Source: an uncultured Gammaproteobacteria bacterium (lineage in GTDB: Bacteria > Patescibacteriota > Microgenomatia > UBA8517). From it: a DNA stretch of 29,580 bases. Positions within the stretch are counted from its first letter, which is position 1; every line of letters starts with the position of its first letter. Shown here in pieces: positions 7,460-22,729 of the stretch. The stretch is from positions 1-29,580 of the forward strand of contig CAYITS010000001.1 of the NCBI GenBank assembly GCA_964366385.1. Reading direction: 5' to 3'. Under the pieces are notes generated by a model. The model saw only the letters and a program-made list of their open reading frames with translations. It had not been told where the DNA came from and ran no database searches. The translations under genes were made by a program, and so were the position numbers.

Positions 7460-8279
7460 TTACAAACTCCCCCGAAACCCAACCTTCCTTTCCTTCTTCA
7501 TATTCAATCTTAAACCAACCGGTTTTACTGTCTTCTTCGATGTATTTGAATTTTTCTCCCGATTTAACTTTTACAAGCTCGTCCGCTGTTGTGCTCGGCT
7601 CCGACCTTACTCTCAAGAAACCGTTTGGTGTGGCAAGAATTTCAACTTGGTACGTCTTTTCAGGCTCTTTTGGTTGTTCGTCCCGGGTTTCTTCTTTGGG
7701 TAAATCTGAATTCACAGCAAGTTTTACGATCGCAGTTAGTTTGTATCCCGTTATCGTCTTTACGGTAAAAGTTCTTTCTTTAAACCTTTCGGCCGACACC
7801 GCAACTTGATGTTCACCTGCACTTATATCCGTAATCTTGATTGGAGCAAATCCCCTAATTTGACCGTCTATGGAAACTTGCGCGGAATCGGGAACGGAAA
7901 TAACCGCCAAACTCGTTTCCTTTACTCCTACTTTTTCAAAAGATATGACCTCACCTGCCGAAGTTTCATCGCTTTCTCCGAACTCCCTTTTGATTATCGT
8001 TTTTATTCCGGTCCCAAGGTTAACTTTAGTTTCATACGGAACCAGGGGTTTACCCAAAGATTCGGGAATAAGTTTAACCACAACCTCGGAAGGGGTTTTT
8101 GTCATTTCATAAGGAGTACGGCCAACCTGAACCCCGTCGATATAAACCGAAGCCGTAGGGGTTGTTTCTATCAATATTCCCGCTTTTTTAGGTTTGAAAT
8201 ACCCCACCAGAAAAAAAGTCAGCCCAATCACAAACAACACCCCCACAAAAGCAAAGATAACTTTCTCAAGCCTTTTCAT
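7443..8279 (-). CDS. Membrane-anchored PEGA-domain protein with C-terminal SH3b-like domain
   Basis: N-terminal TM helix, two PEGA-like repeats (IETTPTASVYIDG..VGRTP; ISVPDSAQVSIDG..RGFAP), and C-terminal LRVRSEPS...GWFKIEY..GKEGWVSGEFV. Confidence 0.8.
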   Translation of the reverse strand: MKRLEKVIFAFVGVLFVIGLTFFLVGYFKPKKAGILIETTPTASVYIDGVQVGRTPYEMTKTPSEVVVKLIPESLGKPLVPYETKVNLGTGIKTIIKREFGESDETSAGEVISFEKVGVKETSLAVISVPDSAQVSIDGQIRGFAPIKITDISAGEHQVAVSAERFKERTFTVKTITGYKLTAIVKLAVNSDLPKEETRDEQPKEPEKTYQVEILATPNGFLRVRSEPSTTADELVKVKSGEKFKYIEEDSKTGWFKIEYEEGKEGWVSGEFVKKILI

Positions 8280-8343
8280 TGTGTAAGAAGTTTAGCACGA
8301 GATGAAGCTAGAAAACAAGGCGTTGACACAACACCGATAGGGT

Positions 8344-8372
8344 TTGTATTTAAGGATCAAAAAGGTTAAAAT
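8344..8372 (+). promoter_or_regulatory. Putative sigma70 promoter for the tRNA/GIY-YIG locus
   Basis: TTGTAT-N17-TAAAAT ending 8 nt before G8381, the first base of the split tRNA. Confidence 0.5.
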
Positions 8373-8380
8373 TGGCTTAC

Positions 8381-8413
8381 GACCAGGTGCTTGAACGGCC
8401 AAAGATCGGTCTG
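8381..8413 (+). tRNA. 5' half of an interrupted tRNA-Cys(GCA), positions 1-34
   Basis: GACCAGG-TG-CTTG-AACGGCC-AAAG-A-TCGGT-CT-G gives an acceptor strand, D-arm, anticodon stem and G34, with the same geometry as the intact tRNA-Cys. Confidence 0.75.
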
Positions 8414-8450
8414 TCCCGCGGAGCGGGATCCTGCTCTGCAGGACAAAACC
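8401..8450 (+). repeat. 50-bp direct repeat, copy 1 (tRNA positions 22-41 plus 30-nt double hairpin)
   Basis: AAAGATcgGTCTG-TCCCGCGGAGCGGGA-TCCTGCTCTGCAGGA-CAAAACC; 41/50 identical to 8801-8850. Confidence 0.9.
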
Positions 8451-8454
8451 ATTT

Positions 8455-8709
8455 ATGTTCTACGTTTACATTCTCCAAAGCTTAAAAAATTTCGATATTT
8501 ACGTTGGATTTACAAACGATCTGAAAAATCGTCTTAAGAAGCATAACCTGGGAAAAGTTCGTTCGACAGAACCTTATAAACCATGGCGGTTGGCATATTA
8601 CGAAGCCTATCAATCAAAAGCTGACGCTACCAAGAGAGAAAAACAGCTAAAAATGCATGCTGTTAAAAAAGAACTTTTATCACACCTGGAGAAAAGCCTG
8701 ACAAAATGA
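8455..8709 (+). CDS. Small stand-alone GIY-YIG nuclease family protein
   Basis: MFYVYIL...YVGFTNDLKNRLKKHN...PWRLAYYE...ATKREKQLK; the Tyr, Arg, His and Glu typical of the family are present. Confidence 0.9.
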   Translation: MFYVYILQSLKNFDIYVGFTNDLKNRLKKHNLGKVRSTEPYKPWRLAYYEAYQSKADATKREKQLKMHAVKKELLSHLEKSLTK

Positions 8710-8724
8710 TAAAATACAAAAACT

Positions 8725-8798
8725 GACCCGTTAGCAGAGTGGTCATGCAACGGTCTGCAAAACCGTGTACGAGGGTTCGATTCCCTCACGGGTCTCCA
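8725..8798 (+). tRNA. tRNA-Cys(GCA), intact, CCA encoded
   Basis: GACCCGT/ACGGGTC acceptor, GCA/TGC D-stem, ACGGT-CTGCAAA-ACCGT anticodon arm, GAGGG-TTCGATT-CCCTC T-arm, U73, CCA. Confidence 0.97.
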
Positions 8799-8800
8799 AG

Positions 8801-8850
8801 AAAGATATGTCTGTCCTGCAGAGCAGGATCTGGCTCTGCCAGACAAAACC
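8801..8850 (+). repeat. 50-bp direct repeat, copy 2
   Basis: AAAGATatGTCTG-TCCTGCAGAGCAGGA-TCTGGCTCTGCCAGA-CAAAACC. Confidence 0.9.
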
Positions 8851-8884
8851 GCTTAAATGGGTTCGACTCCCATCCTGGTCTCTA
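8844..8884 (+). tRNA. 3' half of the interrupted tRNA-Cys(GCA), positions 35-76
   Basis: CA-AA-ACCGC-TTAA-ATGGG-TTCGACT-CCCAT-CCTGGTC-T-CTA. CCTGGTC is the exact complement of GACCAGG at 8381, and U73 is present. Confidence 0.8.
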
Positions 8885-8982
8885 ACTCCACAAAACTTGA
8901 CCCCAGTAACAATTACGGCTCATGCCAAATTATCACCACGGGGTCGGCGGGACGTAGGTTTTTGCAAAAAACTGTACGTCCC

Positions 8983-9012
8983 TTGACTTTTGAAGACTTC
9001 ATGGTGTAGAAT
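8983..9012 (+). promoter_or_regulatory. Putative sigma70 promoter of the M23 peptidase gene
   Basis: TTGACT-N18-TAGAAT, immediately downstream of a 34-bp imperfect palindrome (8949-8982). Confidence 0.55.
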
Positions 9013-9045
9013 TGCGACTCATCTCGCATTCGTGCGGGATTTTTC

Positions 9046-9708
9046 ATGATACAACTATCATTAAATCTACCCAAATATCGTCTTCATTTACATCTGGTAA
9101 AAAGGCGGGGGGCTGACTTGGATTTGCCGCTTTTTCCAAAGCTTGACGACATTAAAAAAACCCGCAGCGGAAACAAGCTGTCCCGCTTTTTTAGGCACGT
9201 ATTCGAGCACAAAAACATTAAAAGGGTTTTTGGTGCAAATATGGCCTTAGTGATTATGGCGACACAGTTTATACCCAATATTCCGCCAAGCGTTGAGGCC
9301 GAGGAGACAATCATCAGGGAAACCGAAACTCCGATTACAACCATAAGAGATGTTCAATATCCCGTTAAAGAGGTTCGAATAACTCAGGGTTATTCTTTCT
9401 TCCATCCTGGATTGGATCTGGACGGAGTTACGGGAGATGAAATAAAATCCATAAAATCGGGAAAAGTTGAGGCCATATCGTATTCAAAATACGCATACGG
9501 AAATGCTGTTCTGGTAAATCACGGAAACAAGCTCACTTCCCTTTATGCCCACCTCTCTAAAATAGAAGTAAATGAAGGAGAAGAAGTTACCACCCTAACA
9601 AAGTTGGGAGAAATGGGTGCAACCGGACGTTCTTTTGGCGACCATTTGCATTTAGAAATTAGGGAAAACGGAATTCCCATAAATCCATATTCCGTGCTTC
9701 CCAGGTAA
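9046..9708 (+). CDS. M23 family metallopeptidase
   Basis: HPGLDL (HxxxD), YGNAVLVNHG, SLYAHLS, GATGRSFGDHLHLE (HxH). Exact start uncertain. Confidence 0.9.
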   Translation: MIQLSLNLPKYRLHLHLVKRRGADLDLPLFPKLDDIKKTRSGNKLSRFFRHVFEHKNIKRVFGANMALVIMATQFIPNIPPSVEAEETIIRETETPITTIRDVQYPVKEVRITQGYSFFHPGLDLDGVTGDEIKSIKSGKVEAISYSKYAYGNAVLVNHGNKLTSLYAHLSKIEVNEGEEVTTLTKLGEMGATGRSFGDHLHLEIRENGIPINPYSVLPR

Positions 9709-21647: not shown

Positions 21648-22729
21648 TGAAAATAATTAAAGATCCTTTTGATATTAACGAAATCATCAACGTATTGAAG
21701 GCCGATGGCCTGGTAATATTCCCCACCGAAACAGTTTACGGGATCGGCGCCGACGCAACAAACAGCAAAGCCATCAAAAAATTAAATCGCTACAAACAGC
21801 GTCCCCCCGGCAAACCTTACTCTATTGCGGTAAGCAGTCAAAAAATGGCCGAAAAGTTTGCTGAAATTAATTCCACCGCAAAAAACATCTATAAAGAGTT
21901 CCTCCCGGGACCCGTCACCGTAGTTTCAAAAGGAAAAGGCAAACTGGCTCCCGGAGTCGAATCGGAAACAGGAACCTTGGGTATAAGAATCCCCGACCAT
22001 CCTTTGGTTATCAAGATCATAGAAAAATTAGGTGCGCCAATAACGGCAACCTCCGCAAACGCTTCTTATAAAAAACGCCCCTACAAAATCGCAGATATCT
22101 TAAACAACGTCTCAAATAAGCAATGGGGTTTGATAGATCTGATTATTGATGCCGGAGAATTAGCGCATAACGAACCCTCAACGGTTATTGATACCACCCT
22201 TGATGATTTGGTTGTTTTACGTCAGGGTAATATAAAATTCAAAAATAAAAATGAAGTTCTTTCAAGAGGTGAAGAAAATACACAAAATATAGCTAAAGAG
22301 CTTTGGCAAAAGTATGAAGAGTTCGCCGGAAAAAGAGCAATTGTCTATGCGTTGGAGGGACAAATGGGAGCGGGAAAGACCCAGTTTGTAAAAGGCCTCG
22401 CCCGGGCCATGGGAATTAAGGAAGAAATCCTCTCCCCCACTTATGACTTATTACTTAGCCATCAAACCCCTGCCGGCCGGCCGGCAGGATTAACCATTGG
22501 CCATCAATTGGTTCATATCGATACCTGGAGGATGGTTGATCCGACTGAAGAAATAAAGAACTTAAGAACCAAAGAACTTATAGATAACAAATCAGTAATT
22601 GCTATTGAATGGGCTGAAAAAGTGGCCGATGTAATCAGGTCTTACACCGATGACGCAATTATTATTTGGATAAAAATCAGGTATGGCGAAAAAGAAAACG
22701 AACGCCTGATTTCTTGGGACGTTATATGA
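21647..22729 (+). CDS. tsaC-tsaE: TsaC (threonylcarbamoyl-AMP synthase)-TsaE (ATPase) fusion
   Basis: N-terminal FPTETVYGIG, KQRP..KP, PGPVT, GIRIPDHP, TSAN, PSTVID. C-terminal GQMGAGKTQFVKG, SPTY, HIDTWR, IEWAE. One continuous frame. Confidence 0.9.
   Translation: MKIIKDPFDINEIINVLKADGLVIFPTETVYGIGADATNSKAIKKLNRYKQRPPGKPYSIAVSSQKMAEKFAEINSTAKNIYKEFLPGPVTVVSKGKGKLAPGVESETGTLGIRIPDHPLVIKIIEKLGAPITATSANASYKKRPYKIADILNNVSNKQWGLIDLIIDAGELAHNEPSTVIDTTLDDLVVLRQGNIKFKNKNEVLSRGEENTQNIAKELWQKYEEFAGKRAIVYALEGQMGAGKTQFVKGLARAMGIKEEILSPTYDLLLSHQTPAGRPAGLTIGHQLVHIDTWRMVDPTEEIKNLRTKELIDNKSVIAIEWAEKVADVIRSYTDDAIIIWIKIRYGEKENERLISWDVI
22469..22488. repeat. Perfect 20-bp GC palindrome inside the TsaE domain
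   Basis: CCTGCCGGCCGGCCGGCAGG, encoding PAGRPAG and flanked by heptamer-like ttagcca / ttaacca ttggcca. Confidence 0.85.

Follow-up and report, generated by a model that had tools for sequence, protein, structure and literature searches.

A cassette encoding a GIY-YIG nuclease and a complete tRNA-Cys interrupts the resident tRNA-Cys gene of an uncultured bacterium (GTDB lineage Patescibacteriota; Microgenomatia; UBA8517) precisely between G34 and C35. The 430-nt interruption lies in the stretch of 29,580 nt that we analysed (the window; assembly GCA_964366385.1, contig CAYITS010000001.1) and opens with a double hairpin of 30 nt, followed by the 84-aa GIY-YIG gene and a complete tRNA-Cys of foreign type, and closes with a second double hairpin. 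We consider it probable that this is a selfish-looking mobile cassette of ~400 bp, equipped with a rescue tRNA, which inserted into the resident gene. A sequence-only reading of the locus had proposed such a minimal module, a GIY-YIG gene with a rescue tRNA-Cys interrupting a host tRNA-Cys, and both the empty allele at the syntenic site of a relative and the foreign inner tRNA support it. That reading is supported for the minimal module, the rescue tRNA and the linkage of such nuclease genes to tRNA genes; excision at the RNA level and, apart from CTA for CCA, decay of the split copy are not supported, nor is duplication upon insertion as the origin of the repeat.

A tRNA-Cys gene split at its anticodon

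Joining 8381-8413 to 8844-8881 gives a 71-nt tRNA-Cys with a perfect acceptor stem (features of the locus are shown in Table 1). The split at G34|C35, which had been read from the letters, is confirmed by the relative G108, where an uninterrupted tRNA-Cys at the syntenic locus is identical to the joined halves at 68/71 positions across the junction 8413|8844. Collinearity between the two genomes extends over one gene upstream, portions of the neighbouring PEGA/SH3 gene and, downstream, the M23 peptidase gene, and the 5' half aligns with the intact tRNA-Cys in a 37-nt blastn block at 92%. In G108 we found neither a hairpin doublet nor a GIY-YIG match. Thus, the predicted empty allele exists, and the locus shows the presence/absence polymorphism of a homing endonuclease gene or mORF-type element, G108 being empty with its target intact. 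The T27-C43 mismatch, previously taken as decay of the split copy, is also present in the intact tRNA-Cys of G108, as is the weak D stem, and both are therefore features of the lineage. The only unpaired differences of the split copy from G108 are one D-loop base and CTA for CCA, and of the supposed decay only the latter stands.

Table 1. Features of the interrupted tRNA-Cys locus (window positions 8381-8884 and upstream promoter-like site).
Feature	Position	Strand	Basis or remark
-10-like TAAAAT	8367..8372	+	8 nt 5' of resident tRNA start; by eye; same place in G108
Orphan 5' half, resident tRNA-Cys positions 1-34, CTG end	8381..8413	+	Aligned to G108
Left 30-nt double hairpin	8414..8443	.	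Two 15-nt units TCNNGC-NNN-GCNNGA joined at GATC
CAAAACC relic (anticodon loop 3' side) and 4 nt before ATG	8444..8454	+	Junction CAAAACCATTTATG, same in L169
84-aa single-domain GIY-YIG gene, Ssn-like / bacterial Slx1-like minimal type	8455..8709	+	Pfam PF01541
Promoter-like site TGGAGA, 17 nt, TAAAAT, TG-extended -10	8687..8715	+	Within ORF end
Complete cassette tRNA-Cys(GCA), GACCCGT type	8725..8798	+	ARAGORN; Rfam tRNA 65.2 bits
Relic AAAGATATGTCTG, 5' strand of anticodon arm	8801..8813	+	Cassette-borne; nearly same form in G026
Right 30-nt double hairpin	8814..8843	.	1 base from L169 left hairpin
Orphan 3' half, resident tRNA-Cys positions 35-73 then CTA	8844..8884	+	Contiguous with 5' half in G108

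A TAAAAT hexamer upstream of the 5' half is likely the promoter of the resident tRNA; it was not flagged in a consensus promoter scan because its -35 is weak. From there, transcription would now run through the 5' half into the hairpin and on into the nuclease gene. The second promoter-like site, at the end of the ORF, is ~10 nt upstream of the inner tRNA, and its TGATAAAAT motif is also found in G082. ARAGORN, run with introns of up to 3 kb, did not call the split gene and reported no additional tRNA.

The direct repeat that encloses the unit (8401-8455 and 8801-8855; 55 nt, 80% identity) noted earlier as a 50-bp repeat, might suggest a duplication made upon insertion. This is not supported by the doublets within it, which differ from each other at 7/30 positions and are each closer to copies in other genomes. 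Nor is the structure a misassembly of its repeats, as independent contigs cover all of it. A single Logan contig from run X3 spans 8387-8873 with zero differences, contigs of runs X1 and X2 tile the locus, an independent ENA contig (L168) is identical across it, and the same cassette is present on a 142-kb contig of a relative (L169). Runs X1-X3 come from Hainich groundwater. Collapse or chimaerism at the 55-nt repeat might be suspected in a fragmented metagenome bin (70 contigs) with repeats close to read length, but against these contigs an artefact has next to no probability.

The inner tRNA-Cys is foreign to the locus

By sequence comparison, the inner tRNA belongs to a foreign type. It agrees with the split halves at 52/69 positions (75%), compared with 86-93% identity to cassette tRNAs of other genera, including 67/72 for that of G048 and 62/72 for that of G087. 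A comparison with G038, which covered the tRNA-Cys alone, gave 64/71 positions. In G000, G048 and G087 the same inner type is enclosed by resident halves that differ. Whether the genome holds another tRNA-Cys was the first check proposed for the rescue model, and the inner copy was the only one found (metagenome bin of 70 contigs). Because of this, the host depends on the cassette tRNA. Several findings count against a mobile cassette. The inner tRNA and the target share almost the same anticodon arm, so the model does not account for the immunity of the rescue copy. The others, described below, are the missing DNA-binding domain, the failure of the doublet to match the published SRM motif, the synonymous saturation between genera, the varying layouts, and metagenome contigs with neither a circle nor an excised allele.

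A single-domain nuclease and its hairpin doublets

The ORF product matches the Pfam GIY-YIG domain over residues 1-67 (E 8.7e-17), and a search of NCBIfam returned nothing above cut-off. The protein is a catalytic domain only, without the separate DNA-binding domain for a long target site present in I-TevI and SegB, and among PDB entries it comes closest to two UPF0213 proteins, 1ZG2 and 1YWL. No other GIY-YIG gene is present in this genome. Several copies of the nuclease gene are retained in 112/139 genomes of the order. The residues Y3/Y5, Y16, R26, H30 and E62 are conserved across all six orthologues, the reading frames are all intact, and dN/dS is 0.10-0.17 wherever dS is computable. Judged from these sequences, the nuclease is probably active. 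Between genera dN/dS was mostly uncomputable owing to saturation at synonymous sites, which implies that most cassettes are old residents and not recent arrivals. At 51% identity (E 2e-23), the protein matches the products of alphaproteobacterial genes that have canonical SRM hairpins around them (identified with the published motif in L119, L120 and L128). Those genes adjoin tRNA-Pro; in L128, the locus that was read from end to end, the 5' part of the tRNA-Pro is present in duplicate as well.

The 15-nt hairpin unit TCNNGCNNNGCNNGA occurs four times in the window against 0.2 expected. The 30-nt doublet pattern was found in 15/139 genomes of the order at 1-4 copies per genome, and a reversed control pattern was never found. 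Copies with exactly the sequence of the right doublet of the window occur in G082 and, on the opposite strand, in G018. The left and right hairpin copies of the window share 85% complementarity across 34 nt. Folding predicts either two 6-bp hairpins or one long helix; we observed covariation under the two-hairpin model and none under a single 30-nt long hairpin, so the former was kept. The doublet is an exact insertion/deletion unit in itself: it also occurs alone elsewhere as exact 30-nt insertions, once in frame in a coding gene, and at 11 loci there is no nuclease gene within 1.5 kb.

The cassette recurs among relatives

The unit of hairpin, nuclease, tRNA-Cys and hairpin recurs in other genera within different resident tRNA-Cys types. 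We found the nuclease gene at a tRNA-Cys in 5/5 of the closest homologues in the order and in 19/19 metagenome loci (at least 59% identity), nearly all with hairpin doublets; in many of the loci L168-L186 there are hairpins on both sides of the gene. Across phyla, 37/80 homologues have a tRNA within 300 nt, on the same strand in every case (37/37). In a tree of 110 homologues the tRNA labels were clustered (27 changes versus 41.4 when shuffled), with the tRNA-Cys-linked genes forming one clade. The homologue survey thus agrees with the expectation of a strong association of such nuclease genes with tRNA genes, whole or in halves, and with hairpins.

Between the window and its syntenic close relative L169, dS was 0.148 for the GIY-YIG gene and 0.561 for the neighbouring PEGA/SH3 gene. 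With this lower cassette dS and the foreign inner tRNA, the histories of element and host are discordant. L169 carries the 5' half of a different tRNA-Cys type and has lost the 3' half. In L171 and L172, both orphan halves are identical to those of the window, the nuclease is 73-74% identical and the inner tRNA is of another type; L173-L175 contain layered debris. Presence varies within genus g19, where G082 has a hairpin and a nuclease gene upstream of its tRNA-Cys and both are missing from G083 and G018. The layout also varies, the cassette of G082 being upstream of the tRNA and not inside it, and the nuclease gene of G073 preceding the 5' fragment. Hairpin-bearing tRNA copies are truncated or degenerate in G026, G034, G048, G073 and G087, and relatives with such copies have an intact tRNA-Cys adjacent wherever the contig extends far enough. 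Metagenome contigs contained no circle and no excised allele bearing this organism's own flanks. A joint of 8413 to 8844 in contigs of four runs was rejected as excision; only the tRNA aligns, so what these contigs carry is the uninterrupted tRNA-Cys gene of some other organism.

Comparison with known systems

From the sequence alone, the architecture had not been recognised as a described system. A similar pairing of nuclease and hairpins is already published: Chenal et al. 2025 reported site-specific single-stranded DNA nucleases (Ssn) with NTS/SRM hairpin repeats (PMC11893778). The tRNA-splitting GIY-YIG cassette, however, was not described in the literature that we searched on GIY-YIG with tRNA genes, CPR/Patescibacteria, UPF0213/YhbQ and anticodon-loop homing. 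Ssn acts on single-stranded DNA, where its cut lies a few bases to the 5' side of the hairpin, and leaves double-stranded DNA and RNA uncut, and the hairpin-gene-hairpin layout was likened by its authors to an insertion sequence (PMC11893778). The nuclease and hairpins of the window resemble this system in sequence. Both have a single-domain GIY-YIG protein (~90-100 aa; 84 aa in the window) with the same catalytic Tyr and Glu positions (Y6, Y17 and E64 in SsnA; PMC11893778), and short GC-rich hairpin repeats on both sides of the gene. The core of the window repeat, TCCCGC-GGA-GCGGGA-TC, resembles the NTS core TCCCGCG-MAV-GCGGGAATC, and a putative place of the window protein in the Ssn clade (CDD family cd10448) has indirect support from its identity to the canonical-SRM-flanked gene of L128. 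Unlike Ssn, the window unit lies within a tRNA gene and has a rescue tRNA and split halves, whereas tRNA has 0 occurrences in PMC11893778. Its repeat joins two 15-nt hairpins into a symmetrical doublet, which is present in 1-4 copies per genome and not in hundreds. The published SRM search motif has no match in the window and 2 matches genome-wide, and it hits neither doublet even at 2 substitutions.

Phage T4 SegB, a free-standing GIY-YIG homing endonuclease in a tRNA gene cluster, likewise places a nuclease gene among tRNA genes, has a site that includes a conserved tRNA stem-loop motif and spreads along with neighbouring tRNA genes (PMC2330249). It differs in that it is a phage enzyme with several domains, has double-stranded DNA as its substrate and is spread through co-infection, with no split tRNA, hairpin repeats or insertion inside a tRNA. 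Fungal mitochondrial mORFs (Allomyces atp6; Glomus atp6, atp9, cox2 and nad3) bring a replacement gene end, so that an endonuclease ORF and a foreign replacement part sit in an essential gene; the displaced native part stays downstream, nearly identical to that of the nearest relative, and the inserted part is divergent (PMC3630166). However, these are mostly LAGLIDADG elements in protein-coding genes of organelles and replace the 3' end only, whereas the window cassette supplies a whole tRNA, orphans both halves and is bounded by hairpin repeats.

The analogy with REP-RAYT drawn from the sequence alone is apt, although Ssn/SRM is the closer published analogue. In REP/REPIN-RAYT, too, one nuclease-type gene is flanked by palindromic doublets that are also dispersed as non-autonomous copies (PMC3116915). 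RAYTs, by contrast, are relatives of HUH Y1 transposases and the sole domain in the window is GIY-YIG; REPINs are extragenic, number hundreds and have no tRNA link, unlike the sparse doublets of the window type. Cyanobacterial SDRs and Rickettsia palindromic elements (RPEs) are tiny palindromic sequences inserted exactly, including in frame in coding genes and in RNA genes, and the doublet behaves likewise. SDRs are reportedly very small mobile repeats, in the account of Elhai et al. from 2008, and no nuclease gene is known to be associated with them. The doublet differs from both in sequence and host range, and RPEs are 100-150 bp.

Alternative explanations

The same locus could be a passive scar, if palindromic hairpins stall replication and lead to local duplications, deletions and exchanges among tRNA-Cys copies while the GIY-YIG gene just rides the tRNA promoter and plays no part. 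The doublets without a nearby nuclease gene and the varying layouts would suit this, as would the compensatory palindrome changes, since quasipalindrome correction by template switching produces these in DNA without selection. We nevertheless find a scar quite improbable, because the inner tRNA type is foreign to the locus and common to several genera, tRNA identity follows the nuclease phylogeny, the nuclease gene always has the orientation of the tRNA, and homologues of the nuclease are proven hairpin-specific nucleases. A domesticated Ssn/SRM-type system that serves the host, for example by limiting or directing how incoming single-stranded DNA recombines near the tRNA locus, as has been suggested for Neisseria, and leaves tRNA debris as a by-product of hairpin-stimulated recombination, is unlikely. 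Ssn modulates transformation in Neisseria and its authors proposed domestication (PMC11893778), and the age of the nuclease genes, the purifying selection on them and their multiple copies in most genomes of the order point the same way. Domestication, however, leaves the complete foreign tRNA, the exact anticodon position, the lower cassette dS relative to the neighbouring gene and the presence/absence differences among close relatives unaccounted for, and the few hairpin copies per genome compare with hundreds where a host role has been proposed.

Excision of the insert at the RNA level had been offered as an alternative to a mobile module. A functional split or intron-containing tRNA-Cys, with the halves transcribed, paired through the hairpin complementarity and processed into a working tRNA, would be in keeping with the perfect acceptor stem, with halves almost undiverged from the functional tRNA of G108 and with their identity in L171 and L172. 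It is barely plausible given the complete tRNA-Cys within the structure, the truncated or degenerate copies of relatives with an intact tRNA-Cys adjacent, the missing 3' half in L169 and the 3' end CTA instead of CCA. A group I intron was rejected: no intron or other ribozyme family was detected in 8250-9050 by an Rfam search at E up to 10, and the ORF, tRNA and hairpins occupy about 340 of the 430 nt of the insert. So was an archaeal-type split tRNA or bulge-helix-bulge intron, as the folds show two hairpins and no 3-nt bulges, and an intact tRNA-Cys is present. An integrase-borne island in a tRNA gene was also discarded, the only ORF with a domain match being the GIY-YIG gene, with no tyrosine or serine recombinase gene; unlike such islands, in which att restores the tRNA 3' end, the insert at position 34/35 does not restore its target.

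Proposed mechanism and implications

By analogy with the published Ssn enzymes, insertion of the mobile cassette may be driven by the nuclease itself. The nuclease would recognise hairpins in single-stranded DNA, whether those of its own doublets, those formed as stem-loops by tRNA genes or both, and cut a few bases 5' of them, and the breaks would be repaired via copying or pasting of the cassette. The doublets at both junctions would mark the ends of the unit and disrupt the target in the orphan halves. The rescue tRNA would render insertion harmless and afterwards become indispensable, and the nuclease gene would be driven by the resident tRNA promoter. A more specific version, which we hold to be doubtful, is that the unit is an autonomous transposon-like element moving as single-stranded DNA, with the doublet as its non-autonomous derivative. 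An Ssn-type GIY-YIG enzyme would then cut one strand 5' of each doublet and free the exact 400-nt repeat unit, which would be pasted without target duplication into the anticodon loops of tRNA-Cys genes, at TG^CA; the bare 30-nt doublet would land just as precisely elsewhere, even in frame in coding genes. Were this so, it would be a new transposition chemistry built on a GIY-YIG nuclease, with the carried rescue tRNA as an addiction device.

If the cassette is as it appears, it would be the smallest known nuclease-encoding mobile unit (~400 bp), one that persists because it disrupts an essential tRNA gene present in a single copy and itself provides the substitute, and so locks the host in. 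It would give the recently described Ssn-like enzymes a biological context outside Neisseria, and could explain why small GIY-YIG genes lie beside tRNA genes in many phyla and why, in ultra-small bacteria, genomes contain orphan tRNA halves and have tRNAs that seem to be "missing". A doublet that lands in a gene adds ten in-frame codons and may thus give rise to insertions in proteins. A nuclease that cuts at a defined site beside its hairpin may also be useful for single-stranded DNA tools.

Away from the tRNA-Cys locus, a 20-bp palindrome at 22466-22487 of the window was considered as a further repeat copy and set aside, as it does not fit the doublet pattern. Elsewhere in the genome there are two orphan T-arm-like motifs, at C23:9731 and C38:2386.

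Insertion of the cassette into a resident tRNA-Cys gene

The resident tRNA-Cys gene of the window was interrupted precisely between G34 and C35, by a cassette in which two 30-nt double hairpins (doublets) enclose a GIY-YIG gene and a different, intact tRNA-Cys. The sequence-only reading had proposed this structure and a search for empty alleles in relatives, and such an allele was found in G108 (same family, different genus). Collinearity between this genome and the window extends to either side of tRNA-Cys: it takes in one upstream gene, portions of the neighbouring PEGA/SH3 gene and, downstream, the M23 peptidase gene. Window positions 8377-8413 aligned to 1449-1485 of the G108 locus and 8844-8885 to 1486-1527; thus, both tRNA halves are contiguous in G108. 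The joined halves were identical to its tRNA-Cys at 68 of 71 positions, the differences being a compensated pair in the acceptor stem and a single base in the D loop, and searches of G108 returned neither the doublet nor a GIY-YIG match. The T27-C43 mismatch, earlier taken as decay of the split copy, and an odd CTTG/AAAG D stem are common to both; they are traits of the lineage, not decay. The joint 8413 to 8844 was also seen in four metagenome runs, with only the tRNA part aligned, and other organisms from this aquifer also have an intact GACCAGG-type tRNA-Cys.

Features of the split tRNA-Cys locus (window coordinates)
Feature	Position	Strand	Remarks
TAAAAT box, 8 nt before resident 5' half			G108 has it too
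Resident tRNA-Cys 5' half (GACCAGG...GGTCTG, positions 1-34)	8381-8413	+	
Left 30-nt double hairpin	8414-8443	read on +	
CAAAACC plus 4 nt	8444-8454	read on +	
Nuclease ORF, 84 codons	8455-8709	+	GIY-YIG domain, Pfam 8.7e-17
Promoter-like site preceding inner tRNA	8687-8715		
Inner tRNA-Cys(GCA)	8725-8798	+	Called by ARAGORN and Rfam
AAAGATATGTCTG	8801-8813	read on +	
Right double hairpin	8814-8843	read on +	
Resident tRNA-Cys 3' half (CAAAACCGC...CCTGGTC-T-CTA, positions 35-73)	8844-8884	+	

A repeat finder reported a 55-nt direct repeat, 8401-8455 and 8801-8855 (80% identity). The arrangement is no artefact of misassembly, a concern raised before: 8387-8873 is spanned with zero differences by one contig from public run X3, contigs from runs X1 and X2 tile the locus, an ENA assembly made independently from Hainich groundwater (L168) is identical, and the same cassette occupies this locus on a 142-kb contig of a close relative (L169).

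The host appears to depend on the cassette tRNA. The inner tRNA-Cys is the sole tRNA called at the split locus, and a check for another tRNA-Cys in the window's own genome (616 kb, 70 contigs, 88.6% complete) found none with ARAGORN or Rfam. The same genome has one GIY-YIG gene, the window's own. It yielded 21 (ARAGORN) or 20 (Rfam) tRNAs, and several amino acids were without any detected tRNA gene; contig breaks at tRNA loci and incompleteness likely account for this low count. T-loop motifs (GGTTCGACTCC) lie outside called tRNAs at C23:9731-9741 and C38:2386-2396; the C38 motif is followed by TCCGGCC, resembling the 3' end of a GGCCGGA-type tRNA-Cys, and so may be further tRNA debris.

A foreign tRNA-Cys and traces of movement

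Judged by its relationships, the inner tRNA-Cys is evidently foreign to the locus, a rescue tRNA that travels with the nuclease. Its acceptor is of GACCCGT type, and it matched the resident halves at 52 of 69 positions, compared with 67/72, 64/71 and 62/72 for tRNA-Cys of the related genomes G048, G038 and G087. In G048 and G087 a GACCCGT-type inner tRNA adjoins the orthologous nuclease gene, and the orphan pieces around it are of other resident types, GGCCGGA and GGCCACG. On metagenome contigs, tRNA-Cys adjoined the nuclease in 19/19 loci with nuclease identity of at least 59%, and in most of them one doublet preceded the ATG by about 45 nt and a second followed the tRNA at 10-16 nt. The inner tRNA of G078 is the same as that genome's own orphan halves, and in G073 the cassette parts are in a different order.

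Comparison with relatives, which are a sample including many incomplete genomes, indicates that the cassette has recurred and spread horizontally. L169 is syntenic with the window (PEGA/SH3 gene about 83% identical in DNA), and the nuclease gene diverged by dS 0.148 and dN 0.020 v 0.561 and 0.109 for the adjacent host gene. In L169 the orphan 5' half belongs to the GGCCGGA type, the left doublet differs by one change from the right doublet of the window, and the 3' half is missing. A 202-aa methyltransferase-like gene (L169:1568-2173, minus strand) lies where the right hairpin and 3' half would be. L171 and L172 have orphan halves identical to the window's, around another inner tRNA and a nuclease sharing only 73-74% identity. 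Three types meet in L173-L175, where the 5' orphan is GACCAGG, the inner tRNA GGCCACG and the 3' orphan GACCCGT, a mixture that implies serial invasions. Within genus g19, a doublet and the nuclease gene lie upstream of tRNA-Cys in G082, and neither is present there in G083 or G018. G083 (L156, C1), which has no cassette, repeats the final 18 nt of its tRNA-Cys (AATTCCCGCTCCGGCCTC) about 50 nt past that gene, possibly the scar of an earlier cassette.

The nuclease family and its tRNA linkage

Nuclease homologues occurred in 112 of 139 genomes of the order (maximum 17 per genome), and the link to tRNA genes, partial tRNAs and hairpins anticipated by the sequence-only reading was upheld in relatives. 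A same-strand tRNA lay within about 200 nt in 18 of the best 29 loci (L038-L066); across phyla, 37/80 homologues had one within 300 nt, all 37 co-oriented. Partial tRNA copies recurred near homologues: G051 has a tRNA-Trp 5' half, hairpin, nuclease and intact tRNA-Trp, and L128:1080-1850, from an alphaproteobacterial Candidatus Enterousia MAG, has the first 57 nt of tRNA-Pro(GGG), to the T loop, duplicated before the GIY-YIG gene and intact tRNA-Pro. At G050:C9 (L058 reverse strand), three tandem 51-nt copies of the tRNA-Trp 5' part precede an intact tRNA-Trp, followed by a series of other hairpins and a GIY-YIG gene. Neighbour-tRNA identity clustered on a tree of 110 proteins (27 changes v 41.4 shuffled; 0/200 as low), a test that overstates independence because relatives share tRNA labels; tRNA-Cys-linked genes formed one clade. 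Catalytic residues are conserved, and among solved structures the closest are 1ZG2 and 1YWL, both UPF0213 proteins.

Such a nuclease and hairpin pair is of a kind known since 2025. Ssn are 94-aa single-domain GIY-YIG enzymes whose binding to the NTS/SRM hairpin repeat is restricted to single-stranded DNA and whose cut falls a few bases upstream of the repeat; their genes typically have the repeat on both sides, a layout likened to an insertion sequence, and the word tRNA is absent from the paper (Chenal et al. 2025, PMC11893778). There is a likeness to the NTS core in the first unit of the doublet, TG-TCCCGC-GGA-GCGGGA-TCC, yet a search with the published SRM motif gave no match to the window's doublet. 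That motif detects canonical SRMs flanking homologues in L119, L120 and L128, which adjoin tRNA-Pro (L128, with its duplicated 5' part, is the only one of these loci read end to end). The window's protein shares 51% identity with them (E 2e-23) and is therefore probably an Ssn member or close neighbour. In the literature searched, we found no description of such a pair that lives within tRNA genes, supplies a replacement tRNA and leaves split debris.

We consider it probable that this is a mobile cassette carrying a rescue tRNA; that the nuclease itself causes its placement seems less likely than not. The enzyme would act on hairpins in single-stranded DNA, where a cut on one strand at the 5' side of both doublets would release precisely the 400-nt repeat unit. 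Another possibility is that breaks cut beside tRNA stem-loops are repaired from a cassette-bearing copy. The TAAAAT box would transcribe the nuclease gene.

The hairpin doublet as an indel unit

The doublet comprises two TCNNGC-NNN-GCNNGA units with GATC at the join. Pairing held for 98.3% of stem cells across 21 copies (14 genomes), and a single long-hairpin model had no support. Double changes numbered 39, v 12.7 ± 3.0 in shuffles (0/500 as high), which is no proof of an RNA role since covariation in DNA palindromes can come from template switching. The two loops are mostly complementary, so the doublet looks alike on both strands.

The doublet is an independent indel unit. Of the order's 139 genomes, 15 carried it at 1-4 copies each (reversed control in none), and 11 of its loci lacked a nuclease gene within 1.5 kb. 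Sites in tRNA-Cys debris were the anticodon, D and T loops. In g19 it was an exact 30-nt insertion with no target duplication, and one copy splits a TACAAT box. Compared with G082 (L042) and G083 (L156), G018 (L155/L152, C4:46825-46854) has an exact in-frame doublet insertion after ATGAAAAAGACTG, behind codon four of the gene that lies downstream of tRNA-Cys, which lengthens the N-terminus by ten codons. At window 22466-22487, within the TsaC-TsaE coding region, lies a perfect palindrome of 20 bp, CCTGCCGGCCGGCCGGCAGG; it does not fit the hairpin unit, and may thus belong to a different palindromic insert family.
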